Origin: a phage | Length of the DNA stretch: 64,000 nt | Strand: one strand, 5' to 3' | Assembly (NCBI GenBank): GCA_012628545.1 | Contig: GCA_012628545.1_3035.1 | Shown: in pieces, positions 1-45,653 of the stretch | Numbering within the stretch: the first letter of the stretch is position 1 | How the letters are laid out: every line of letters starts with the position of its first letter | Made by a program: the position numbers and the translations under genes | Notes under the pieces: generated by a model | What the model saw: only the letters and a program-made list of their open reading frames with translations | Database searches by the model: none | What the model was told of the DNA's origin: nothing

Positions 1-26
1 TTTTATTCTCCGAGATGTTTAATTGC

Positions 27-66
27 GGTACAGGTATATAATATCATATCCTGTACCAAAGTAAAC
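27..66 (-). promoter_or_regulatory. early promoter, -10 region inside an inverted repeat
   Basis: GTTTAC -35 (rc of 61..66); IR ggtacagg / cctgtacc flanks tatataatatcatat. Confidence 0.4.
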
Positions 67-70
67 TATT

Positions 71-439
71 TTATGCAACTTTAATCCAATTATCTAAATT
101 TAATTCACCTTTGGCTTTCATTTTTTCAATCAAGAGGTCAGCGGTAATACGACCATTTTGATACCACGTAACATCTTCAGAGTAACCAGTTTCTTTATCT
201 TCATAAGTCTCGCAGCGAATTTTACCAAGAATCAAAGTTTTTAATTCGTATGTATCTCCAGTAAAAAAGTTAGTTAACATTATTTTCCAAGAGAAATCAT
301 CAGAAGGACCTTCAGGAGTCATACAATCTACGAATTCAAATTGTTCTTTGTATAAGTGCCACTGAAGTTCTTTAGTTTCGATAGCTTTATAGCCGTCGTG
401 ATCTTTACCTTTGATGTATGAGTTAAGATTGATTTTCAT
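71..439 (-). CDS. hypothetical protein
   Basis: 122-aa ORF in early-gene orientation; no recognisable motif. Confidence 0.5.
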   Translation of the reverse strand: MKINLNSYIKGKDHDGYKAIETKELQWHLYKEQFEFVDCMTPEGPSDDFSWKIMLTNFFTGDTYELKTLILGKIRCETYEDKETGYSEDVTWYQNGRITADLLIEKMKAKGELNLDNWIKVA

Positions 440-463
440 TTTATTCTCCTTTGTTTGTGTAAG

Positions 464-496
464 ATAATACTATCACAAAGGAACCATACTGTAAAC
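464..496 (-). promoter_or_regulatory. early promoter
   Basis: GTTTAC (rc of 491..496) and TATTAT-like -10 upstream of ORF 71..439. Confidence 0.4.
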
Positions 497-515
497 AACT
501 TTGTGCAATCTTTGG

Positions 516-544
516 AAAATAAAAAAGGACTCCCGAAGGAGTCC
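516..544 (-). terminator. rho-independent terminator
   Basis: Hairpin ggactcc-cgaa-ggagtcc (UUCG loop on minus strand) followed by U-run. Confidence 0.5.
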
Positions 545-549
545 TCAAC

Positions 550-726
550 TTATGCTTTCTGCTTACCAAAACGAGAAGCATCATCTCGAAGAACCGCACG
601 TGCTCGGCGCATGATCTTCTCAACAGTTTGATTGATACGAGAGTTCGACCCACGCTTGTAACCAGCGCGTTTAGAATCACCAACTTTCTTTTCAACTGCT
701 TTCTTTGCTTTAGCTTGTTTTGCCAT
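550..726 (-). CDS. small Lys/Arg-rich basic protein (58 aa)
   Basis: ORF track 550..768 trimmed to internal ATG (MAKQAKAKK...) preceded by GAGA Shine-Dalgarno; followed by terminator hairpin. Confidence 0.4.
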   Translation of the reverse strand: MAKQAKAKKAVEKKVGDSKRAGYKRGSNSRINQTVEKIMRRARAVLRDDASRFGKQKA

Positions 727-845
727 TATAAATTCTCTTTTAAATGAAAATGCAGGACTTATTGGCATTGCCTGCGCAAGCCCTCAAGGGGTACTTAGGT
801 TTTGAATATTTACCGACAGGATAACCATAAACCTCGTCAACATAA

Positions 846-1094
846 TTACTTCAGTGTTACCACAAAGTGACGAACTGCTTTTCGTGCAGCAGAAGCCAGA
901 GGCTTAGCATATTTAAGTTCATCTTTTTCCTGAAGCTCAGCAGCTAATGCAGTTTGAGCAGGATTCAGATGTTTGAAATAACGCAGGATTTCAAGAGCTT
1001 CGGCTTCAACATCAATAGAAGCGCCATAGTTTTCGTGACCATTATTCCATGCGTTTCGTTGCAGTTCAAGAGCGTGTTGTAATTGTTTAATCAT
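846..1094 (-). CDS. rIII: rIII lysis-inhibition accessory protein
   Basis: 82-aa ORF; length, sequence recall and position next to gene 31 match T4 rIII. Confidence 0.75.
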   Translation of the reverse strand: MIKQLQHALELQRNAWNNGHENYGASIDVEAEALEILRYFKHLNPAQTALAAELQEKDELKYAKPLASAARKAVRHFVVTLK

Positions 1095-1241
1095 TTAAAA
1101 ATTCTCGTTAGAGATTAAAACTCGGTAGTCACGTTCTTCTGAATTTCATCTTCTTTCGACAGATCTCTCAGTTGTAGACTACCACATAGAATTGTTCGGT
1201 TAACTTATTATTCCGACACCCAATTCATATTATTATTTATA

Positions 1242-1577
1242 TCACTTATAAAGACACGGAATAGCTTTATAGTGACAAGTAACGAATTTTTGTTTAATTT
1301 CTTTTGGCTGCTTAAGACCCAGAGCTACAAAAGGATGCGGAACATTTCGAATTTGACCAACTGGAAGAGAAGTCAAATCACCAACTTCGCAAAAACCTTT
1401 AGGAACATCAGGACCGACAGAGTGAACTACACACAGTTCAGGAACTTCACCTTGAACACGTTTACCGATGATAAGTCCTGATTCTGTAACTTCTTCATCA
1501 CCGGCTTGTGCAGGTTCAGAAACTAAAATAACATATTCACCGACAGCACGAATTGGTAGCTGTTGTACTTCAGACAT
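1242..1577 (-). CDS. 31: co-chaperonin for GroEL (GroES analogue)
   Basis: 111-aa ORF beginning [15 protein letters not shown], matches T4 gp31 by length and sequence recall. Confidence 0.85.
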
Positions 1578-1607
1578 CGTTTTTCCTTTTTGTTAACAGA
1601 TGAATTA

Positions 1608-1634
1608 ATAATAACAAATAATTCTTAAAGCATT
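1608..1634 (-). promoter_or_regulatory. MotA-dependent middle promoter for gene 31
   Basis: Minus strand AATGCTTTA MotA box, 12-bp spacer, TATTAT -10. Confidence 0.45.
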
Positions 1635-1942
1635 TATTTACCAATAAATTGAAGCAAATGCTCAACTTTCATGCCATTAACGGAAATCAATTTGTCAATA
1701 GAAAAACCTCGCCATGCACCGAGTTCAACATCAAATATCGGAATCATATCAGTAGATTCTTTCCGAGTAGATTCAGTCAATTTACCAGTTTGCATGGTTG
1801 GCATAAAGTCAGCATCACGGGTGCCTTTCATAGTACGAATAGTACCATCAGACTTTTCAAAAACTACATTTGAAATACCCATGGACAATTTAGTTTTCAA
1901 AATTTCACGAATTGCTACTTTTTGTTCAGTCGTCAGTTTCAT
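1634..1942 (-). CDS. hypothetical protein
   Basis: 102-aa ORF, translationally abutting neighbours. Confidence 0.5.
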   Translation of the reverse strand: MKLTTEQKVAIREILKTKLSMGISNVVFEKSDGTIRTMKGTRDADFMPTMQTGKLTESTRKESTDMIPIFDVELGAWRGFSIDKLISVNGMKVEHLLQFIGK

Positions 1943-2179
1943 TTATTTACCTATTACAGTTTTAATATGAGTTGTTCCACGTTCTTTAAGAGTGGAAAGC
2001 AATTTTTGGCATTTTTCTAAATCAGATTTCCAACTATACGGCCTATCAATACAAACCCATTCTGACTTATAATACTGTTTCCATTTAGAGAAAAAATATT
2101 TCTTATACTCTACAGCAAATGAAATGTTCTCGTTAGAATAAGAACTAATTGCTGTGAGCTGTACCAAACGAAATTTCAT
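1943..2179 (-). CDS. hypothetical protein
   Basis: 78-aa ORF. Confidence 0.45.
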   Translation of the reverse strand: MKFRLVQLTAISSYSNENISFAVEYKKYFFSKWKQYYKSEWVCIDRPYSWKSDLEKCQKLLSTLKERGTTHIKTVIGK

Positions 2180-2760
2180 TATTCACCACAGAATTCGTTG
2201 ATATTTTCCCAATTTAACTTATTTAAGTTTTTCTTAGGAACATTAAACACTTCAATACCCGCATTTCGCAGAATATCATCCCAGCCAGGTTTATTTTTAT
2301 CGTATGTTTCGCAATAAACCAGCTTTTTAATTCCAGATTGAGCTATCGCTTTTGCACAATCTGGGCAAGGAGAAAGTGTTACATACATAGTAGCACCTTC
2401 AATTGAAGAACCATTTCGCGCAGCAAACAAAATCGCATTTAGTTCAGCATGAATTTCATTTTTAGACGACCACTCAGAGTGAGCACTACGATGTTCTTTC
2501 GCCAAGACAAAACGATCAGTTGAACCAAATGATACACATTCAGGCTTATGACCTTGAATGATAGTATGTTTAGGCTTATTCAGCAACCAACCTTGCTCAG
2601 CAGCATAATCGCAGCAATTCACACCCCCGGCAGGTGAACCATTATATCCGGTAGAAATAATACGTCCATTCTTTTCAATTACCGCTCCTACCTTCCAGGA
2701 GCAACATTTTGATTCTTGTGATACTAAATATGCAATTTGAAGTACTGTACTCGCTTTCAT
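2179..2760 (-). CDS. cd: dCMP deaminase
   Basis: 193-aa ORF with cytidine/dCMP deaminase zinc motifs (HAE ... PCPDC); T4 Cd length. Confidence 0.85.
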   Translation of the reverse strand: MKASTVLQIAYLVSQESKCCSWKVGAVIEKNGRIISTGYNGSPAGGVNCCDYAAEQGWLLNKPKHTIIQGHKPECVSFGSTDRFVLAKEHRSAHSEWSSKNEIHAELNAILFAARNGSSIEGATMYVTLSPCPDCAKAIAQSGIKKLVYCETYDKNKPGWDDILRNAGIEVFNVPKKNLNKLNWENINEFCGE

Positions 2761-3095
2761 TTCATAATCACCAGATAAGCAGATTTAGCAGTTTCAACAC
2801 GATAAATTTCGTGACGAAGTTTAGTTATACTTTTAATAACAGAACTAATTATATTCTGCCCATCTTTAAAGCGGTTTTTCTTATCAATAAAAATTGCACC
2901 AGCCATCTTTTTGTGAAGCTCAACTGGATACTTCGTCACAATAATAGCATCATACACAGAAGGATGAATACTATTCACTAGAGTGTCATTCATTAAAGTT
3001 ATTCTAATGAACTGTGCTGTGTCAGAGTCAAGCGCTCTATGATCGCCAGTATCATTTTCAAGACAATTATCAATTATATCAGTTAAATTCATCAT
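2757..3095 (-). CDS. hypothetical protein
   Basis: 112-aa ORF, start overlaps upstream stop. Confidence 0.5.
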   Translation of the reverse strand: MMNLTDIIDNCLENDTGDHRALDSDTAQFIRITLMNDTLVNSIHPSVYDAIIVTKYPVELHKKMAGAIFIDKKNRFKDGQNIISSVIKSITKLRHEIYRVETAKSAYLVIMK

Positions 3096-3328
3096 AGTAC
3101 GCCATACACCCTTTGTGCTTCAACTAATCCATCAAAATCCAATTTGAGATGTGTTATTTGGTCACCATCACCTGGATTCACAATTACTAATACTGAACGA
3201 GGAGTTTCGGTAATAACACGAACCGATGTTTCTGGAAATCGTTCAGAAACCTTATTTACCAATTCCTGAGCAAATAGTTTAACTTTTTCTTGGAATTCTT
3301 TAACAGTAATTGGTTTTTCACTTAGCAT
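3092..3328 (-). CDS. hypothetical protein
   Basis: 78-aa ORF downstream of early promoter. Confidence 0.5.
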   Translation of the reverse strand: MLSEKPITVKEFQEKVKLFAQELVNKVSERFPETSVRVITETPRSVLVIVNPGDGDQITHLKLDFDGLVEAQRVYGVL

Positions 3329-3350
3329 TTTGTTTTCCTCATTTGTTTTG

Positions 3351-3388
3351 GTAGAGCTATAATATCACAACTCTACCAAAAAGTAAAC
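3351..3388 (-). promoter_or_regulatory. early promoter, -10 region inside an inverted repeat
   Basis: GTTTAC (rc of 3383..3388); IR ggtagag / ctctacc around ctataatatcacaa. Confidence 0.4.
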
Positions 3389-3390
3389 TA

Positions 3391-3672
3391 TTAAATTGCC
3401 TTGAATTCTGATGTCTGTGATTCAAAGCGAATATCGCCTTTGATGACTAGCTCAGCATCAAGACCAAATACGACAATGATATGCGCGGAACCCGGATACA
3501 GCGTAATTGCAATAGAATCCACCTGGTCTGGAAGCAAAGTGTTCAATACATGAGTCACTTGAGCATGAATTCGAAGCTCGGCTGCGTTATCAAGCTTTTC
3601 AAACATATTATTAGCGATAATTTGACTAAACACTACTTCTACGATTTTAGAATAAGTCGGAAACATATTCAC
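3391..3672 (-). CDS. hypothetical protein
   Basis: 93-aa ORF. Confidence 0.5.
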   Translation of the reverse strand: MNMFPTYSKIVEVVFSQIIANNMFEKLDNAAELRIHAQVTHVLNTLLPDQVDSIAITLYPGSAHIIVVFGLDAELVIKGDIRFESQTSEFKAI

Positions 3673-3861
3673 CTCACATAATTTTCTTCAAGCCAATTAA
3701 TAACATCCAACGCATTATCAAAAGTTGAACCATCTACTATGTCTTCTGTTTCATAATCAAGAATATCTAAGTCTACTCTTCCATCAACAATAGGCCATAA
3801 ACAAAATAGATATTTCTTTTCTTTTTCAATTTTATCACAAAGTCGATAAATCTTTTCTATG

Positions 3862-3869
<8 letters not shown>
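3669..3869 (-). CDS. hypothetical protein
   Basis: 66-aa ORF. Confidence 0.45.
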
Positions 3870-5280
<1,411 letters not shown>

Positions 5281-5284
<4 letters not shown>

Positions 5285-5517
5285 TTATTTTTCTCAACCA
5301 ATGATTGAATATAATCATGCAGGTCTTTAGATGCTTTACCCCACTTATTTTGATATTCATTTTTAAGATTAGCCCGAGATTGAGCTAATAAAACATCATT
5401 AGTTGGAGGTAAAGATTCTAATCGTTGAATCTGACGTCCATAAATCATTGCAGCCATCTCAGATTCATAAATCAATCCTTTGAGATGTTCAAATTGATGC
5501 CATGAAATCATTTGCAT
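5281..5517 (-). CDS. hypothetical protein
   Basis: 78-aa ORF. Confidence 0.5.
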
Positions 5518-5807
5518 TTATCCTCTTTTAACTCTTGACGATAATAACATATCATAGTTTTTTGGTCATGTACATATCGTTTTACATCATTAAGCCAAAT
5601 ACGAAATTCCTGAGAATCTTCAAATGGCATACCGACCCAAGCTTTACCATCAATAACTTTAACTTGCCAAGATAGTTTAGCTTCGTCATATGACTTTATT
5701 TGCACAGGCCAATTAGGATGAACTGTTTCTTTCTTTACTTCTAGAGGCTTTGTAGAACAACCAACTAGAAGACCAATAGATAATATTACTGCTGATAGTT
5801 TAATCAT
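5508..5807 (-). CDS. putative lipoprotein
   Basis: 99-aa ORF with signal peptide and lipobox-like LLVGCS. Confidence 0.5.
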   Translation of the reverse strand: MIKLSAVILSIGLLVGCSTKPLEVKKETVHPNWPVQIKSYDEAKLSWQVKVIDGKAWVGMPFEDSQEFRIWLNDVKRYVHDQKTMICYYRQELKEDKCK

Positions 5808-6157
5808 TTAGAAAGGTCCTGGATGTCTTCTGCGAACTTGTTGAAGGAATTGTTGATTTGTTTTTCAACCAATCCTGGCTTACGAGCCACCACATCCGCC
5901 TTCTTTGCGTCTTTGCGCAGCTTTTCATTTTCACGCTCAATAGCAGCAATTGCCTCACGATTTTTAGTATTCATCGCATCAATATAATTATACTGAATTC
6001 GCAAATTATTTAATGCTAAAGCGTTTTCATTGGCTGTTTTTGTAATTTCAGTAACTGATGTTTCTAATCTTTCTACCTTATTTTTTAAAATAATAGATGT
6101 TCCGCCCAATGCTATTACAATTAATAGCAAACCTGCTGTCGTATTACTTAATTGCAT
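5804..6157 (-). CDS. hypothetical membrane-anchored coiled-coil protein
   Basis: 117-aa ORF, N-terminal hydrophobic helix. Confidence 0.5.
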   Translation of the reverse strand: MQLSNTTAGLLLIVIALGGTSIILKNKVERLETSVTEITKTANENALALNNLRIQYNYIDAMNTKNREAIAAIERENEKLRKDAKKADVVARKPGLVEKQINNSFNKFAEDIQDLSK

Positions 6158-6654
6158 AAAGTTTTAATAACCTCTATAATATCGTCTTGAGAAAGACCGT
6201 TAATTAAAATATGATGTTCAGCCGGAGATTTAGAAATTTTAAAGCATGCCTCAACATCTTCTGCCATATCCGATGCGCTACGATTTGGATTACTAATTCC
6301 AAGACGATGTTTTCCCGTCAAAGGATTGACGATGATATAGCATTTGCAGCTATTGATATGAACATTAGGTTGAGTCTGATTAATGAACACTTCGCAATCA
6401 TACTTAGCGAGTTGATTTTCTAAAAAGACTTTCATCTCCTCAACCGCATCAGGAAGCATATCACGGGCTTGCTCAAGACGACGATTTCGATATTCTTTAA
6501 TGGTCGTTTTCCGCTTGACTTGCTTAGCTAAATCTTTCTTAAGATCGGTGATATATCCAACTCGACGATTTCCTTTGAATACAGAAATCCCATCTGTAGT
6601 ATCACCGTATGCTTCAACGACCATTTCAGTAGTAATAAGCTGCAAATCCATCAT
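6148..6654 (-). CDS. alc: Alc, inhibitor of host transcription on cytosine DNA
   Basis: 168-aa ORF; length, synteny and sequence recall of T4 Alc (167 aa); true start may be second Met. Confidence 0.7.
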   Translation of the reverse strand: MMDLQLITTEMVVEAYGDTTDGISVFKGNRRVGYITDLKKDLAKQVKRKTTIKEYRNRRLEQARDMLPDAVEEMKVFLENQLAKYDCEVFINQTQPNVHINSCKCYIIVNPLTGKHRLGISNPNRSASDMAEDVEACFKISKSPAEHHILINGLSQDDIIEVIKTLCN

Positions 6655-6715
6655 AAAGTCCTCATGTTATGTCAGTAAGACTACTGTAACACAACACGAG
6701 GGACTTGTAAACAGC

Positions 6716-8303
<1,588 letters not shown>

Positions 8304-32526: not shown

Positions 32527-32676
32527 TTACTGCATGACTGTGATAACTGTCATGATAACACGTTGAATTCCGAACGCAAGAAGACCTCCTGCTACGGCTG
32601 GAACAACACCTAAACCCGCCAGTAAAATGCTACCAGATACTAATGCAGCGCTTGTAATACCAATGAATGGACTCAT
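32527..32676 (-). CDS. small hydrophobic protein (49 aa)
   Basis: Hand-translated MSPFIGITSAALVSGSILLAGLGVV...; ATG overlaps gene 52 stop (ATGA); below ORF-track cutoff. Confidence 0.4.
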   Translation of the reverse strand: MSPFIGITSAALVSGSILLAGLGVVPAVAGGLLAFGIQRVIMTVITVMQ

Positions 32677-34001
32677 TTGATTTCCTCTAAATCTTTGGTG
32701 TATTCGGTAACTACATCAGTAGTTTTCCAATATTCGTTTTCTTCTTTTTTAGCTTTAGCTTCTTCAGCAAGTTTCTTTGCTTCATCGGAAGTCATATGAA
32801 AAATATTCATTCCAACTAGTTTATCAACATAAGAAGAATACATATCGATTTTCGAAAGTTCTTCGGTCAGTTCTTTACGAGTTTTACCCTGTACAACAAT
32901 TTCACCTGAAATTACTTTCTTAATGAAATGTGCCTTGGCAAAGGCTAAACGAAAAGCTGACTCAGTTTCTTTGATTTTGTTATCAATTCGTTTTTGGACA
33001 TAAGTTTTACGAACTTCAACAAAGTCTTTGATTAAATCAACTACGTTATCGTAAACTTGTAGTTTTCCTTTCTCATTAATAACCGTAATATTCTGAGAAC
33101 GACGCTCAATCAACCCGAAGTCTTTCATAATTTTTGCATGGCGTTCTTCTTCGTTATCGCTCAAAGAATATTCTTTGCGGAATTTAACTTTGAATCCAAA
33201 ACCGTGCTCACCACAAGCATCATCCCATGTAATGAAGCCTTTATCTTCAAGTGGGTCTAAGATTTTACTCACATAAGTTTCACGATCATACTTATACGGA
33301 ATCTCAGTGATATGCATTTGAGTTCGTGAAGTAAACTTGTACGTTCCACGAATTTCATATTGACCGTCAATCTCAACGACTTCACCACGAAATTCTGGGA
33401 ATTCTACCTTCGGTTTAGTTACTTTCTTTCCTTGAAGAGCTTGCAGTACAGCTTTCTTGACAGAAGAAACACTATGAGGAAGAATGTAAGTTGCATAACC
33501 AGTTGCAATACCGGAAACACCATTAAGAAGAACAGTAGGAATAATAGGCAAATAGAAAGCAGGCGGAATGTGTTCTTTATCTTGATGTACCGGAGCATAT
33601 TCAGTATCTTTATATACGTTATAGAAATTTTTACTTACACGAGCAAAAATATAACGACTTGCTGCTGCTTTTTGGACGGTACGAGAACCAAAGTTTCCTT
33701 GACCATCTAACAGAGGAAAGTTATTATTCCAAGTGTTAGCCATCAAAGCACCTGCATCTTGTGCAGAGTTTTCACCATGATGATATCCAAGGTCCGCTAC
33801 ACCACCTGCAATAGAAGCGAGTTTATGAAATTTATCTTTATTTCCTCGTGCCAAATCAAGAGCTCGAGCAATAACAAATCGTTGAACTGGCTTAAATCCG
33901 TCAATCATATTTGGGATAGCACGATTTTCAACCGTGTACATAGCATAAGCCAGTGCTTCATTATCAATGATACTTTTTAAATCGCGATTATTCAGTTGCA
34001 T
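32673..34001 (-). CDS. 52: DNA topoisomerase II medium subunit
   Basis: 442-aa ORF, GyrA-like N-terminal domain; T4 gp52 length. Confidence 0.9.
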   Translation of the reverse strand: MQLNNRDLKSIIDNEALAYAMYTVENRAIPNMIDGFKPVQRFVIARALDLARGNKDKFHKLASIAGGVADLGYHHGENSAQDAGALMANTWNNNFPLLDGQGNFGSRTVQKAAASRYIFARVSKNFYNVYKDTEYAPVHQDKEHIPPAFYLPIIPTVLLNGVSGIATGYATYILPHSVSSVKKAVLQALQGKKVTKPKVEFPEFRGEVVEIDGQYEIRGTYKFTSRTQMHITEIPYKYDRETYVSKILDPLEDKGFITWDDACGEHGFGFKVKFRKEYSLSDNEEERHAKIMKDFGLIERRSQNITVINEKGKLQVYDNVVDLIKDFVEVRKTYVQKRIDNKIKETESAFRLAFAKAHFIKKVISGEIVVQGKTRKELTEELSKIDMYSSYVDKLVGMNIFHMTSDEAKKLAEEAKAKKEENEYWKTTDVVTEYTKDLEEIK

Positions 34002-37917: not shown

Positions 37918-40095
37918 TTAGGCCGCAAGGGCCTTCATAGTTTTAGCGATTTGGGAAACTTCATCATCACTTAAAGAGTTGCGATAACCGATGAAGTCGG
38001 AAACAATACGGAATTTCTTGGTAAACTCAGCAACCATTTTATCACTATTTTTTGAAGCATTACGTGATAATTCATCAAAGAGATTAGTTACTGTCCAGAT
38101 ATCATGACCGATGGTATCTTTTCCACCATTGAAATACACACCGCGTAATGAACTAACCATATTACCAAGTCGTGTATATTCTTCAGAAACTTCATCTGTA
38201 CTGAAGTACTTCATCATAAAATCTAGTTCAGGATACTTGATAATTTTATCAATATATCGTTGAGCTGAACTTGAATAACCTACATACTTATCATAATCTA
38301 CATCATCAAAAGCATCTACATATAAATCACGCAAAGCTTCAAAAATACATTGGCACTGACCGAGTTCTTTTACCTTTTTCTGTAAAAGCGGACGAATAAC
38401 ATAAAATTCATTAATGCCAATAAGATTAGCCATACGAATCAAAATATTCATAGATGGATGACAAAGTGATGTAGTACCATCCATAGAGAAAATATCAGAA
38501 CGATGCATATACGCTACATAACCAGTAATTTCATCTGCTTCTGACGTAAGTGTAAATAATTCCTCTTTTTCCCAACGCCCGTCTTTAATTTCAAACTTAA
38601 ATGCTGTAGCAGCTTTAGGACGAGGAGCTTTACTTTTAACTACCTTTGGAATATAGCTTTTAACTAAAGCTTCAATTTCTGACAAATAATGAATGTTAAC
38701 TTCATCACTTTCAAACATTGCCATAATATCAGGTAGTAAATCAATCTGCGATTCTACTTCCGGATTAATAAACAGAAGACGCTCATTGTGATGAATATTT
38801 AAAGTGTTATTAAATTCACTATCATCTAGCGCATGTGCTAATCCACGGACAATATTAACACGATTTTTAATATTATCAATAACGATATTAATTTTTGTTG
38901 TATTAATACCAAACAGACGATAACTTGACGCAACGGCTGATGTTTCATGACTTTGCTTAATGCGTTTCAGTCGAGGGTCAAGATTTACTTCATACACAAC
39001 TCCTGCATTGCATAACTTACTGTCAGGTTCAAACATGCTCTGCATCTTTTTATATGACAGATTTTTAGTCGTGAATTTGACTGAATTACTAATCATATAA
39101 TCTCGAGCAGAATACCCCATCTTCATCAATTCACGATATGTGTGACGAGGAGATGTAGATTCTTTAAATCGTTTTACATCTTCATTAAATGCTTTCTCAC
39201 TGAGTTCTTTAACTCGTTCAATAATATTTTTACGAGTACGATCATCCAGTGAAAGAGCCTCGCGAGATGGAGCAATATCCAGTGAACCCATTGGAAACTT
39301 AATGTAATTCACTTCATTGCGAATGCTTAGCCAGTTACGGTCTCTAATAACACCATCGATAGGATAAACAATACCGCCATAGATAGCATATAATCCACCA
39401 CGATCAGGCCAGTATCTTTCTGGATTTACACCATAATAATCATCAAAATCAGGAAAATAATCAATTTCGCGGTCAAGACCATTAATGATAGCCAAATCTT
39501 TGAACGGTCGCATGATATAAGAAACTTCATAAGCAAAGTTTCTAAAGTCTTTTTCTTCAACTGGAACTACGATTTCAATACCAGTTTTATCATCTGGACC
39601 CATTTCTTTTACGAATGTAGGTTTAATCTGTGGGCCATCACCATCCATGTAAGCTACATAACCACGAATTTCACCTTTATGATACGAAGTAATACTAAAC
39701 GTATCAGTATAACTAAACGGAGATTTAGAACCTAAACCAAATCCGCCAATAAAGTCATTAGATTCAGCCTTAGATGAACTGAAGTATGAATTATACAGCC
39801 CAGGAGAATTATCATCACCCTGAATATCAAAATCACTCATACCCGGACCAAAATCTCGACAAACAAATCGTGGATCTAATCGTCCTGGAACTTGAATGAT
39901 AAATTTTTCAGGATTTCCATTAAGTGCATGAGCATCAATCATGTTAGTAATCAATTCACGGACTACTGCGCGAATCTTGTTTGTATACAAATCAGATGAC
40001 AGAATTTTAAATACTTTAGGATTTGCTGCGATGCTAAATGCTTTTGATTTAGAACCATTGCCAAGAATTGTTTCTTTTTCAGTGGTGATAATCAT
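37918..40095 (-). CDS. rIIA: rIIA protein
   Basis: 725-aa ORF; T4 rIIA length and synteny. Confidence 0.9.
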
Positions 40096-40105
40096 AATTT
40101 CCTCA

Positions 40106-40378
40106 TTAATTCATATTACGTTTAATAACTTCAGCAACTTCTAGTAGTTCATCTTTAGTTGCGGTGTCGGATTGAATTTTATCTCTAATATCTTTAAAGC
40201 GGTTTTTAAATTCTTCGGCTTCTCCCATATCGAAAAAGCGTTGAATGATTCTATATTCTCGATGAACTGCTTTATCAAAAAGTTCTAAATTTACTCTATA
40301 TGATTTCATTTCAATATCCTCATTTGCCCAATTAATTATACCACATCCTTGTGTAAAGTAAACTACTGGCTCATCCAT
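40106..40378 (-). CDS. hypothetical protein
   Basis: 90-aa ORF. Confidence 0.5.
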
Positions 40379-42183
40379 TCTTTACGAAGGTCAGCATTAT
40401 CTCCCATGAGCATTTCAAAAAGCTCTTTCCAATTCTCAGGAAGTTTAACAACATCATATACTGGATTTTGAATCATCTCACGATATTCAGATTTTTCCAA
40501 AGAGCCAAGTCCCTTAATATAACGGATGCTATGTTTAGGTAGAGCATCTTTGGCACTCTCATATTCAGCGACTGTATAAAACCATTCTTGTTTTTTACCG
40601 ACCTGAGCGATGATTACAGGAGTTTTGACAAAGCGAATTCGTCCTTGCTCAAACAATTCTGGCCAATTACTAAAAAATCCGAGCAGAGAAGGATAAATGC
40701 TTCCTAGACCATCATGGTCAGCATCAGTCATAATAGCAATATTGCGATAATTCAAGTTTTCAGCTTTTTCACCAAGAACTAGACCAGTGATTGCGCAAAT
40801 ATCAAATAGTTCTTTGTTTTTAAGCATATCGGCATATGACATACCCCAGCTATTAAGAACTTTACCGCGCAATGGATAACCACCATGAAGTTCTTTATCG
40901 CGAACATCAATAAGATATCCGATAGCTGAATCACCCTCAGTCAAGAACAATGTAGTGTCAGCATCTTTACCGCAAAGATTCGCTTTAATATGTTTATGAA
41001 CCTTAGCTTTAGAAGCCTTTTTAGCTGCTTTAGTTTCTGCTGCTTTTTCTGCCGCCAATTTACGAGCCAAAGCAGCTTCAATAATCGGCATCAGAATTGC
41101 TTCATTATTTAGAATAGCGCGTGAAATCTTTTTAGCGTCAAGTTGAATATGACTACGAATTTCGCCAAATGGAGAAGTCAAACGCTCTTTAGTTTGAGAA
41201 TCAAATCGCATGTTTTTCATATCACGAACAAACATAACGATAGTCAAACATTCTTTGACACGTGCTTTAGTTACATCAATTTTGAACTTACGTTTGATTT
41301 GTGGAATAAGGTCTTCACAAATATCATCCATAACACAGTCAATGTGATGGCCACCATTCTTAGTGTGAATGTTATTCACGTAAGTTAATTGACGAAATCC
41401 ATCCGGCGAACGACCAACCGCAATAGAACAATTTTCTTGTTCTTGAACAATAGCATGTTCATCATACTGTCGTGCATATTTCTTAAAATTACCCTGAACC
41501 TTTTTACCATTAAAGGTAAATTGAATATCAGGATAAACAACAGCAAGTGTCTGGAGACGATCTAGTGTAATGTCAAGATAAACTTGGGACAGCTCATTAG
41601 TTTCAAATGACATAAAATCAGGAATGAAAGTAACACGGGTTCCTTTCCATTTTCCAGGAATATCTTCCCATGATTTATTTTCCATGCCGTTTGAACAACG
41701 AACTACAATATTATTTTGACCATCGCCAGTTTCACCAACAAACATCACAGAAAAAATGTTTGTCAAACTAGAACCAACGCCATTCATACCACCGGTGACA
41801 CGTTCTTTATCATCACCGAAGTTACCACCTGCTTTTGGAATAGTCCACGCAGCAACAGGACCAGGAATTTCTTCACCGGTAGGTGTTTTAACCATCGCCT
41901 GTGGAATACCACGACCGTTATCTTCAACTGTTACTTGATTATTTTTAATAGTAACATTAATTTTATTTGCGAATTTAAACTTAGTACGAATACCTTCATC
42001 TACTGAGTTATCGATAATTTCATCAATAAGCTTAACAAGACCAGGTACATACTGAACACTTTCCCATTTACCAAACAGAAATCGCTCATGCATTTCATTA
42101 GCTGAAGAGCCAATGTACATGCCGCTACGCTTTTTGATATGTTCAATATCGCTCAGAATTTTAATTTCATTCTTAATCATCAC
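40363..42183 (-). CDS. 39: DNA topoisomerase II large subunit (GyrB-like), gene 39 and gene 60 parts in one ORF
   Basis: 606-aa uninterrupted ORF; GHKL ATPase N-terminus; C-terminus carries the T4 gp60 sequence (NVAIMTDADHDGLGSIYPSLLGFF...). Confidence 0.9.
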   Translation of the reverse strand: MMIKNEIKILSDIEHIKKRSGMYIGSSANEMHERFLFGKWESVQYVPGLVKLIDEIIDNSVDEGIRTKFKFANKINVTIKNNQVTVEDNGRGIPQAMVKTPTGEEIPGPVAAWTIPKAGGNFGDDKERVTGGMNGVGSSLTNIFSVMFVGETGDGQNNIVVRCSNGMENKSWEDIPGKWKGTRVTFIPDFMSFETNELSQVYLDITLDRLQTLAVVYPDIQFTFNGKKVQGNFKKYARQYDEHAIVQEQENCSIAVGRSPDGFRQLTYVNNIHTKNGGHHIDCVMDDICEDLIPQIKRKFKIDVTKARVKECLTIVMFVRDMKNMRFDSQTKERLTSPFGEIRSHIQLDAKKISRAILNNEAILMPIIEAALARKLAAEKAAETKAAKKASKAKVHKHIKANLCGKDADTTLFLTEGDSAIGYLIDVRDKELHGGYPLRGKVLNSWGMSYADMLKNKELFDICAITGLVLGEKAENLNYRNIAIMTDADHDGLGSIYPSLLGFFSNWPELFEQGRIRFVKTPVIIAQVGKKQEWFYTVAEYESAKDALPKHSIRYIKGLGSLEKSEYREMIQNPVYDVVKLPENWKELFEMLMGDNADLRKEWMSQ

Positions 42184-42232
42184 TTATCCTCGTTTGGTTT
42201 CGGGAATATTATACTCCGGTAATCATAAAGCT

Positions 42233-42250
42233 AAAGGCCCGAAGGCCTTT
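42233..42250 (-). promoter_or_regulatory. intercistronic UUCG-loop hairpin
   Basis: aaaggcc-cgaa-ggccttt between ORF 42250..42519 and gene 39. Confidence 0.35.
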
Positions 42251-42519
42251 TATTTAAAACGAATAGTTGAATCCTTAAAGAACAGCCCAGAACATACTGT
42301 TCCTTCTACTTTCTGCCCGGTAGGTCCAATAGCACGAAATCCAGTATGTTGGAAATCATTTTCAGAACAACCGAACCAGTTATATCCAGTGATTTCAATA
42401 TTAGTAAAACCGCTTGAAGATAAAACTTTGGTTGCATTATCAGCATCAGTACATCCTACTAAAGACACTGTTAATACTAATGCTGCAATAGAACGATTAA
42501 TATATTTCATAATTTTCAC
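42250..42519 (-). CDS. putative lipoprotein
   Basis: 89-aa ORF with signal peptide and lipobox LVGCT. Confidence 0.5.
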   Translation of the reverse strand: MKIMKYINRSIAALVLTVSLVGCTDADNATKVLSSSGFTNIEITGYNWFGCSENDFQHTGFRAIGPTGQKVEGTVCSGLFFKDSTIRFK

Positions 42520-42887
42520 TTAAATTTAATGGCTTGAAGAAGACTAATAATTCTCAAGCGACTTCTTTCATCTTTAACTGTAAAAGAAAGAGGGTCACCA
42601 GATTTCATAGTAATAGTACATTCAAAATCAAAATCTTCGGAAACTTCTTTGAAGAAGTCAAATTCTTCATCATAAATTAGAACATTACTCTGACAACTAT
42701 GAAGAATTTTTCCATCATTTCCAGATGCTGTACTAATCATTGTAACATTATGACCTTTCATACCTTCAATGATAAATTCACTAGTCAATATTACAGCATT
42801 AATAGAACTATTCCTATTACTAGCAGAAAGTAGATATTTCTGTTCTTCACCTTCACGAATGCAATATTTCTTACCGATTTTAAACAT
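42516..42887 (-). CDS. hypothetical protein
   Basis: 123-aa ORF. Confidence 0.5.
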   Translation of the reverse strand: MFKIGKKYCIREGEEQKYLLSASNRNSSINAVILTSEFIIEGMKGHNVTMISTASGNDGKILHSCQSNVLIYDEEFDFFKEVSEDFDFECTITMKSGDPLSFTVKDERSRLRIISLLQAIKFK

Positions 42888-42889
42888 AA

Positions 42890-43066
42890 TTATCCTTTAA
42901 GTAAGTCGTAAAATCCGCCATTCACATGCTTAGGAGCAGAAGGCCGACGAGTAGACAAACGATGACATTTAGGGCAAACATCATTTTCTCGTTCAGAAAT
43001 CTTTTTAATTTTTTCATATTCATGCCCGCAATCTTCGGATTGGCATTTATAATCATACATTGGCAT
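42890..43066 (-). CDS. small zinc-ribbon protein (58 aa)
   Basis: Hand-translated MPMYDYKCQSEDCGHEYEKIKKISERENDVCPKCH...; two CxxC-type pairs; below ORF-track cutoff. Confidence 0.4.
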   Translation of the reverse strand: MPMYDYKCQSEDCGHEYEKIKKISERENDVCPKCHRLSTRRPSAPKHVNGGFYDLLKG

Positions 43067-44088: not shown

Positions 44089-44580
44089 TTATGCATAGCG
44101 AGCTTTGCTGTAGTGTTTAATCCAACTTTCAGGAATGACTTTGTATGTTCCTAAAAATACCGCGTTGTACAGCTTAACACCGTCTTCTACCCATTGATCA
44201 GTAATGTATGCACACATAGCGCGAGTACGGTTAACAACACCTTCCTCACCTTCAGTAAATTCAAACTCATAAGGAGCAACGAACTTGATAGCTTGACCGA
44301 GTTTCCACTTAAAGTCTACACCTACATGCGAAGTATCAATCGTTTCAATTCCTTTAGCGGGAACAGCTTTCAAAAACGCAGGCTCAAGAAATTTCCATCG
44401 AACATAACCAAACTGAGGTTTAGACATTCCATCTTTAGGAATGATACGCACTTTTACTTCAGAATCTTCATCTTTAACACCATGTTTAAGCTGAATGCTT
44501 ACGACTTCAACCAATTTTCCTGCTGCCTTAGAACGGGATTTATCAGATACACGAGCAATTTCACCGATATTAATATTCAT
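44089..44580 (-). CDS. motB: putative MotB
   Basis: 163-aa ORF; assignment from length and synteny only. Confidence 0.5.
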   Translation of the reverse strand: MNINIGEIARVSDKSRSKAAGKLVEVVSIQLKHGVKDEDSEVKVRIIPKDGMSKPQFGYVRWKFLEPAFLKAVPAKGIETIDTSHVGVDFKWKLGQAIKFVAPYEFEFTEGEEGVVNRTRAMCAYITDQWVEDGVKLYNAVFLGTYKVIPESWIKHYSKARYA

Positions 44581-44653
44581 AATTATCTCTCACTTGTTAA
44601 AAAGATTTTATACTCCACAGGACCATTATACTCTGGTCCCAAGAGTTTGTAAA

Positions 44654-45091
44654 CTAGCTTACACGAACATTAATCACTGCGCTACGAGGAACTACAGAGT
44701 ATTCTCCAGCATGAACTACGTTCAGAAGTTCAACACCATCTTCAATCCACTGATCAGTCACCCATCCACCCACAGGATTCGCGAATGGACGACGAATATA
44801 AACTGCCTTACACAGCAGATCAGTTGGATCTTCAGGTTTTTCAATTTCTGTCAATAGACTAAAATCTTTTTCATAAATAATAAGCGGTGATACCATTCCA
44901 TAATAGTTTCTAATTTCAATATACATCATACCGATAAGAATTCCGCTATTAACACTAATAACAGTAAAAGGATATCCGCCAGTTAAACCAAGAAGTTCAC
45001 AAAACTTATTATGAGCTGTATTAGACAGTACCGAAAAATTCTTAATTTCATCAAATTTTTTCAATTGATAAACAGCATTATTTTTAATCAT
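44654..45091 (-). CDS. hypothetical protein, C-terminal module paralogous to upstream ORF
   Basis: 145-aa ORF; shares motif TDQW(I/V)EDGV(E/K)L.N.V..G.Y.V(V/I)P with ORF 44089..44580. Confidence 0.5.
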   Translation of the reverse strand: MIKNNAVYQLKKFDEIKNFSVLSNTAHNKFCELLGLTGGYPFTVISVNSGILIGMMYIEIRNYYGMVSPLIIYEKDFSLLTEIEKPEDPTDLLCKAVYIRRPFANPVGGWVTDQWIEDGVELLNVVHAGEYSVVPRSAVINVRVS

Positions 45092-45101
45092 AATTTTCTC
45101 T

Positions 45102-45653
45102 TTAATCTAAGGTAATAAAGCCTTTTAATTCGGCATGGGATTTACGGAACATTACTTGGTGCCCGCCAATGATAACTTGGTCATCTGGCACTTCATAAAT
45201 CGCAATGTACATTCCACGTTCTTTTAAGTCTTCACGCTCTTCTCGAGTGAACCATCTCATCATATCATATTCACTAGCGAAAGCAAAATGATATAATGCA
45301 ATAAACCACAATGGAATATAATTTTCAATTCGTGAATAATCTTTATTCCATTTAGTTTTAATAACATCATTAGCATTTTCAACTAATAACTTATCATCGT
45401 GTGGAATAGGAATACTTTCATGGCTTTCATAATTATCGCTATGATGATGAAATGACGATGAATTAATACCACAAAATTTTAGCCAAGTTCGAGTTTTCAT
45501 AGAATCAAATCCACGATAAGGAGTTGATTGAACGCATAACTCTTGCCTAATTTTGACTATACCACTATCATCATTTAATGCGCTAAACGATGATTCAACA
45601 CGATAAATTTTCATTTTATTATCCTCAGTAGCTATGGTGTTATAATACCACAA
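45102..45653 (-). CDS. hypothetical protein
   Basis: 183-aa ORF. Confidence 0.5.
   Translation of the reverse strand: MWYYNTIATEDNKMKIYRVESSFSALNDDSGIVKIRQELCVQSTPYRGFDSMKTRTWLKFCGINSSSFHHHSDNYESHESIPIPHDDKLLVENANDVIKTKWNKDYSRIENYIPLWFIALYHFAFASEYDMMRWFTREEREDLKERGMYIAIYEVPDDQVIIGGHQVMFRKSHAELKGFITLD

Follow-up and report, generated by a model that had tools for sequence, protein, structure and literature searches.

The type II topoisomerase of phage T4 relaxes DNA and does not supercoil it. In the majority of phages related to T4, the large subunit of the enzyme is encoded as one gene (PMC3014915, PMC2988022, PMC11461880, bioRxiv 10.1101/2022.08.31.505936), and T2 and T6 have a two-subunit Topo II, whereas that of T4 has three subunits (PMC11461880). 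Insertion of mobA splits the gene relative to its counterpart in a related phage (PMC2988022). The inserted element is 1097–1106 nt long and deletes 64 nt, and its homR segment is 67–81% identical to the parental sequence; the T4 clade has 9 extra homR nucleotides past the bypass (bioRxiv 10.1101/2022.08.31.505936). The same preprint cites Bonocora et al. 2011 for the nicking of T2 gene 39 by MobA within the homR-equivalent region, and places the nick, approximately, about 20 nt upstream of the bypass insertion point. There, homR polymorphisms alone are reported not to block nicking, a 50-nt insert is reported to do so, and the cassette is described as spreading efficiently to cassette-less phages in mixed infections (bioRxiv 10.1101/2022.08.31.505936). 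The unsplit gene is already known, with descriptions going back to at least 2010, and the T4 mobA/bypass cassette was defined by comparison with it, as the published 'parental' form. Chain C of a cryo-EM structure of T6 topoisomerase II (8ylu) is gp39 (PMC11461880).

We analysed a gene of this kind in the window (the whole 64,000-nt stretch of phage DNA). The region 40363–42180 is very probably gene 39 of a Tequatrovirus, encoding the full GyrB-like subunit on one chain, in a cassette-free and presumably ancestral allele that would be expected to act as a recipient for MobA homing. We found no evidence in the window sequence against this one-piece reading. Beyond the annotation itself (gene 39, DNA topoisomerase II large subunit, 605 aa, minus strand) its importance is small; its practical use is limited to serving as another cassette-free comparator, or a recipient, in studies of MobA homing or gene 60 bypass.

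Gene 39, its product and its partner

The following features describe the gene, its upstream region and the motifs of its product.

40363..42180, minus strand: gene 39 coding sequence, large (GyrB-like) subunit of a phage type IIA topoisomerase, assigned from the ORF, identity to phage GiZh, Pfam and 8ylu_C
42181..42183, minus strand: in-frame GTG, the mechanical ORF start behind the 606-aa length; probably unused
42184..42249, minus strand: intergenic region upstream of gene 39, from reading of the sequence
41767..42021, minus strand: GHKL ATPase motifs EIIDNSVDE (aa 54–62), DNGRGIP (aa 87–93) and GGMNGVGSS (aa 130–138), from motif location
40924..40944, minus strand: LTEGDSA, with the Toprim glutamate (aa 413–419), from motif location; on gp39 in T4
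40708..40725, minus strand: DADHDG, the Toprim acidic (DxD) motif (aa 486–491), from motif location; on gp60 in T4

A first-pass annotation of this DNA had described an uninterrupted 606-aa ORF at 40363–42183. The ORF listing has one minus-strand ORF at 40363..42183, with 606 codons counted from GTG and no internal stops, so the uninterrupted frame stands; the length is corrected here to 605 aa, from the ATG at 42180. This ATG (42180–42178) directly follows the in-frame GTG (42183–42181). A GAGGA Shine-Dalgarno sequence (42187–42191) is 6 nt from the ATG, compared to only 3 nt from the GTG, and in T4, T2, T6 and GiZh it is the equivalent ATG that opens gp39 (MIKNEIK). Because of this spacing and the homologue starts, the true start of gene 39 is almost certainly the ATG, and the gene would comprise 605 codons plus a TAG stop. 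The origin of such an ORF by chance, given its length of 1.8 kb in DNA of 36% G+C and its 99% identity to a known protein, is far beyond what is plausible.

The upstream intergenic region contains a GGCC-TTCG-GGCC hairpin just past the gene 39.1 stop, and also an AGCTTTA box, with TATAAT (42208–42213) 12 nt further on. Neither the hairpin nor the TATAAT was called by a simple sigma-70/terminator scan. By comparison with the T4 consensus, the AGCTTTA box and TATAAT together may form a MotA-type middle promoter.

The predicted protein shows 100% identity to ANZ51448.1 of phage GiZh, annotated there as "DNA topoisomerase II large subunit"; the GiZh coding sequence, placed on the window coordinates, occupies 40363–42180. 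Pfam searches identified an HATPase_c domain (aa 48–150; 38.3 bits against a cutoff of 26.4), the transducer domain DNA_gyraseB (PF00204; aa 251–385, 51.1 bits against a cutoff of 27) and TOPRIM_C (aa 520–605). For the Toprim model of Pfam, no match in this protein reached E = 0.001, but the region is fully aligned with the T6 gp39 structure. In a PDB search, residues 1–605 matched residues 1–605 of 8ylu_C end to end (1381.8 bits). The protein differs by only 2 aa from T2 gp39 and 3 aa from T6 gp39–for example, it has Arg479 where both T2 and T6 have His479. Near-identity to the T6 protein assayed in PMC11461880 suggests that gp39 of this phage would take part in ATP-dependent DNA relaxation. 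The protein shares its architecture of GHKL ATPase, transducer and Toprim with GyrB/ParE of bacteria and with the N-terminal half of eukaryotic Topo II; these are distant from it in sequence, with PDB matches of E = 1e-59 to 1e-35 along its length.

The partner subunit and the downstream neighbours of gene 39 are as follows.

32673–34001, minus strand: gene 52, GyrA-like DNA-cleavage subunit, 442 aa (Pfam DNA_topoisoIV, E = 9e-77; gp52 in GiZh)
37918–40095: rIIA, following rIIA.1 in the same order as in T4
40106..40309, minus strand: rIIA.1, the downstream neighbour of gene 39 (Pfam T4_RIIA1; GiZh and T4 annotations)

Gene 52 is 6.4 kb from gene 39. From near-identity to characterised enzymes we infer a division of labour in which the ATPase gate and Toprim metal-binding site would come from gp39, with its GHKL ATPase, transducer and Toprim regions carried on a single 605-aa chain, and the DNA-cleaving tyrosine from gp52. 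The two proteins would then form an A2B2 enzyme as in T2 and T6, as opposed to the three-subunit form of T4 (PMC11461880).

The gene order around the locus (rIIB, rIIA, rIIA.1, 39, 39.1, 39.2, goF, cef, motB) is the canonical T-even order. The gp39 proteins of T2, T6, RB32, RB51 and GiZh are also 605 aa long, are also encoded between rIIA.1 and 39.1, have the same domain order, and also have a gp52 partner. Their gene DNA is 96.4–99.0% identical to that in the window, and they differ from it only by point differences such as the one at codon 479. In RB32 and RB51 the gene is annotated as '60plus39'. Enterobacteria phage GiZh matches the locus (40000–42600) at 99.3% identity, and many other Tequatrovirus genomes match it at 97.5–98.4%; in these genomes, too, the gene carries the annotation "DNA topoisomerase II large subunit". 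Collinearity of the window with GiZh extends past 43 kb, at an identity of about 97.2%. By these identities the source of the window is a Tequatrovirus and a near relative of GiZh, which does not imply that it is the same isolate. The gene is confirmed as an ordinary gene of a T2/T6/RB32-type Tequatrovirus and is not novel.

The junction compared with T4 genes 39 and 60

We aligned the T4 reference locus (NC_000866, positions 1–7500) with the window at both the protein and DNA levels. In the numbering of the 606-aa ORF, T4 gp39 residues 1–473 correspond to residues 2–474 (466/473 identical, ungapped, 99%), and T4 gp60 residues 27–160 correspond to residues 473–606 (128 of the 134 identical, 96%). 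The last 43 residues of T4 gp39 (474–516) and the first 26 of gp60 have no counterpart in the window ORF in the protein alignment. The first-pass annotation had proposed that a single ORF holds both the gp39 and gp60 regions, and the two halves are indeed contiguous, meeting at one junction. A peptide quoted in its support, NVAIMTDADHDG, turned out to be the T4 gp60 spelling; the window has RNIAIMTDADHDGLGSIYPSLLGFFSNWPELFEQGRIRFVKTPV, with Ile in place of Val, and the rest of the quotation is exact (the window peptide being NIAIMTDADHDG, compared to NVAIMTDADHDG in T4 gp60).

At the DNA level, BLASTN aligns window 42260–40763 with T4 5408–3911 (96.4% identity) and window 40698–40300 with T4 2793–2394 (99.25% identity), so that the breakpoints are at window 40763 (T4 3911) and window 40698 (T4 2793). 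Between them, the 46 nt of window 40754–40709 match T4 2899–2854 (homR) at only 76%. Two features are defined by these alignments.

40699..40762, minus strand: the 64-nt stretch that is replaced in T4 by the mobA/bypass cassette and holds the reported MobA nick region (nt 1419–1482 from the ATG), from BLASTN and a codon view
40707..40708, minus strand: site of T4's 50-nt untranslated gap, between GGT (Gly491, 40708–40710) and CTA (Leu492, 40705–40707)

The codon view shows that the T4 cassette begins directly after an Ala codon (GCT, window 40762–40764). At the gap site the window reads GAT GGT CTA GGA AGC, in frame and unbroken. The take-off Gly codon is GGA in T4 and GGT in the window, and T4 uses different, synonymous codons for the next three residues past the gap (Leu-Gly-Ser). 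In place of window 40699–40762, NC_000866 has 1117 nt, and T4T and other corrected T4 records have 1106 nt. The numbers that we measured, among them the 64 nt and the 1106-nt cassette, agree with those in bioRxiv 10.1101/2022.08.31.505936. Pairwise alignment thus located the T4 insertion point within the ORF, as predicted, with the window in frame through both points. The mobile endonuclease and translational bypass with which, according to the first-pass annotation, T4 splits the gene into 39 and 60 are found in T4 as the mobA cassette with its 50-nt bypass, and the description of the window allele as unsplit holds, with no stop, gap or extra DNA at the junction.

The topoisomerase-coding parts of T4 genes 39 and 60 are orthologous to those of the window (99% and 96% identical in protein, 96.4% and 99.3% in DNA), but several features are present in T4 only: the 43-aa tail of gp39, the HNH endonuclease MobA, a new gp60 N-terminus of about 30 aa, a homR of 16 recoded codons, and the 50-nt gap that follows the GGA take-off codon. 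In a TBLASTN search of the whole window with T4T MobA as query we found no MobA homologue (best E = 3.7), and no window sequence lies within 10 mismatches of the T4 50-nt gap. The cassette splits the Toprim domain in T4, leaving its Glu on gp39 and its DxD motif on gp60, whereas in the gp39 of the window the Glu (LTEGDSA) and the DxD cluster (DADHDG) are on one chain and need no reassembly. We also looked in the 64-nt segment for cassette remnants or homR-type polymorphisms from a past invasion; the segment is T2-type.

The records of the T4 cassette themselves differ. In NC_000866 (2971–3767) the annotated mobA is a defective fragment of 38 aa, with '60.1' listed separately, and in HM137666 (T4T; 2169–2987), as in most other cassette-bearing records, it is a single 272-aa HNH MobA ORF with a GTG start. 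The T4T-type cassette is 11 nt shorter than the one in NC_000866, and the state of mobA fits the literature on pseudogenisation of the laboratory T4 copy. Identity to T4 is mosaic around the cassette site, being 99.25% on its 3' side and 96.4% on its 5' side, and identity to GiZh is 99.3% at the gene 39 locus compared to about 97.2% for the window overall. This mosaic pattern is consistent with recombination among T-even phages.

Frequency of the unsplit gene, and its history and predicted susceptibility to MobA

To count split and unsplit alleles we used a 181-nt probe (window 40640–40820) that covers both T4 breakpoints, and scored the junction as uninterrupted when a single match covered at least 80% of the probe. 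By this measure, 453 of the 495 phage records that matched (about 91%) have an uninterrupted junction. The T4 cassette (T4 2803–3910) is present in only 43 phage records, many of which are T4 laboratory strains. By these two counts the split gene is a rare and derived state, and the window has the majority allele, the one common in Tequatrovirus. Its cassette-free form is presumably the ancestral one, and in T4 and a minority of relatives the 64 nt of window 40699–40762 have been replaced by the mobile cassette of about 1.1 kb.

The first-pass annotation had also called this a 'target' allele. Over nt 1381–1530 of gene 39, 148 of 150 positions agree between the window and T2, and the sole difference is at codon 479, which is CGC (Arg) in the window and CAT (His) in T2. 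This codon is inside the replaced 64-nt segment, about 17 nt upstream of where the nick is approximately placed. The window and T2 are identical from nt 1438 to nt 1530, a stretch that takes in both this approximate nick position and the point of bypass insertion. Since the site is nearly identical to that of T2, lacks a protective insert, and has a counterpart that is reportedly still nicked when about 24% divergent, it is reasonable to predict that the gene is a MobA-susceptible recipient. As the window has no bypass insert, which is T4's reported protection from MobA, its allele would be expected to be the recipient in a mixed infection.

We considered whether the allele could instead be uninterrupted and yet naturally refractory to MobA, through the CGC codon for Arg479 or other differences, and thus 'immune' and not a 'target'. 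The 2 nt by which the window differs from T2 are within the replaced segment, and an Arg codon recurs at position 479 in phage FN (as CGT), so the polymorphism is a recurring one. However, in the account of Bonocora et al. given in bioRxiv 10.1101/2022.08.31.505936 it is the 50-nt insert alone that blocked nicking, and a homR that is about 24% different did not, and the identity of the window to T2 extends over the nick position and the bypass point. There is only a slim chance that the allele is refractory, and it is similarly improbable that Arg479 (CGC) is the mark of such an allele; if it were, Arg479 would be a point-mutation route to MobA immunity, distinct from the 50-nt bypass insert of T4. 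A different history, in which the cassette was once present and then lost ('hit and run') with the gene secondarily restored, has precedents in some clades where the element was progressively lost and in one where the split ORFs were secondarily fused (bioRxiv 10.1101/2022.08.31.505936). The reported loss products, though, retain C- and N-terminal tails derived from the cassette, neither of which is in the window; the 64-nt segment is identical to T2 at 62 of 64 positions, is only about 76% identical to T4 homR, and has no cassette-derived polymorphisms; and the locus is placed among the unsplit relatives GiZh, RB32, RB51 and T2. Only full gene conversion from an unsplit phage fits these data, and because it would be traceless it is indistinguishable from never having been invaded. 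We therefore regard past loss of the cassette as very unlikely.

An assembly or consensus artefact that masks a real insertion would also give an uninterrupted frame. We found no support for such an artefact at the gene 39 junction, and it is contradicted by the same uninterrupted junction in 453 independent phage records, by the collinearity with GiZh over 43 kb, and by the full-length match of the protein to a solved structure. Its probability is negligible, and for practical purposes it is excluded.

Neighbouring ORFs and local divergence

Directly past the gene 39 stop, at 40335–40362 on the minus strand, there is a strong sigma-70-like promoter match (TTTACT, a 16-nt spacer, and TG-TATAAT; 10/12). 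It is upstream of rIIA.1, which starts at 40309, and could serve rIIA.1 and rIIA as an early promoter. In the mechanical ORF list rIIA.1 is 90 aa long (40106–40378) and overlaps the end of gene 39, whereas its annotated homologues are 67 aa.

On the other side of gene 39, between 39.1 and 39.2, there is a 123-aa ORF with no Pfam match (42516–42887, minus strand). T4 and T4T lack it, 39.1 being directly adjacent to 39.2 there, but its DNA is present in T2 (97% identity), T6 (91%) and GiZh (99.9%, unannotated). For RB32 and RB51, a hypothetical 'RB32ORF005c' is listed under the match to the gene 39 locus. This place beside the topoisomerase gene seems to be a variable slot. The adjacent gene 39.2 (42890–43066, minus strand, 58 aa) codes for a Zn-ribbon protein (Pfam Zn_ribbon_8, E = 7e-12), and its DNA is only 76–80% identical to the T4 version, making it far more diverged than the flanking genes. 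Collinearity with GiZh is broken near the motB and motB-like genes, where 44096–44518 and 45419–45582 have no megablast match and the intervening 44519–45418 is only 91% identical; this segment (44095–44519 and 45418–45583) is locally diverged or replaced.
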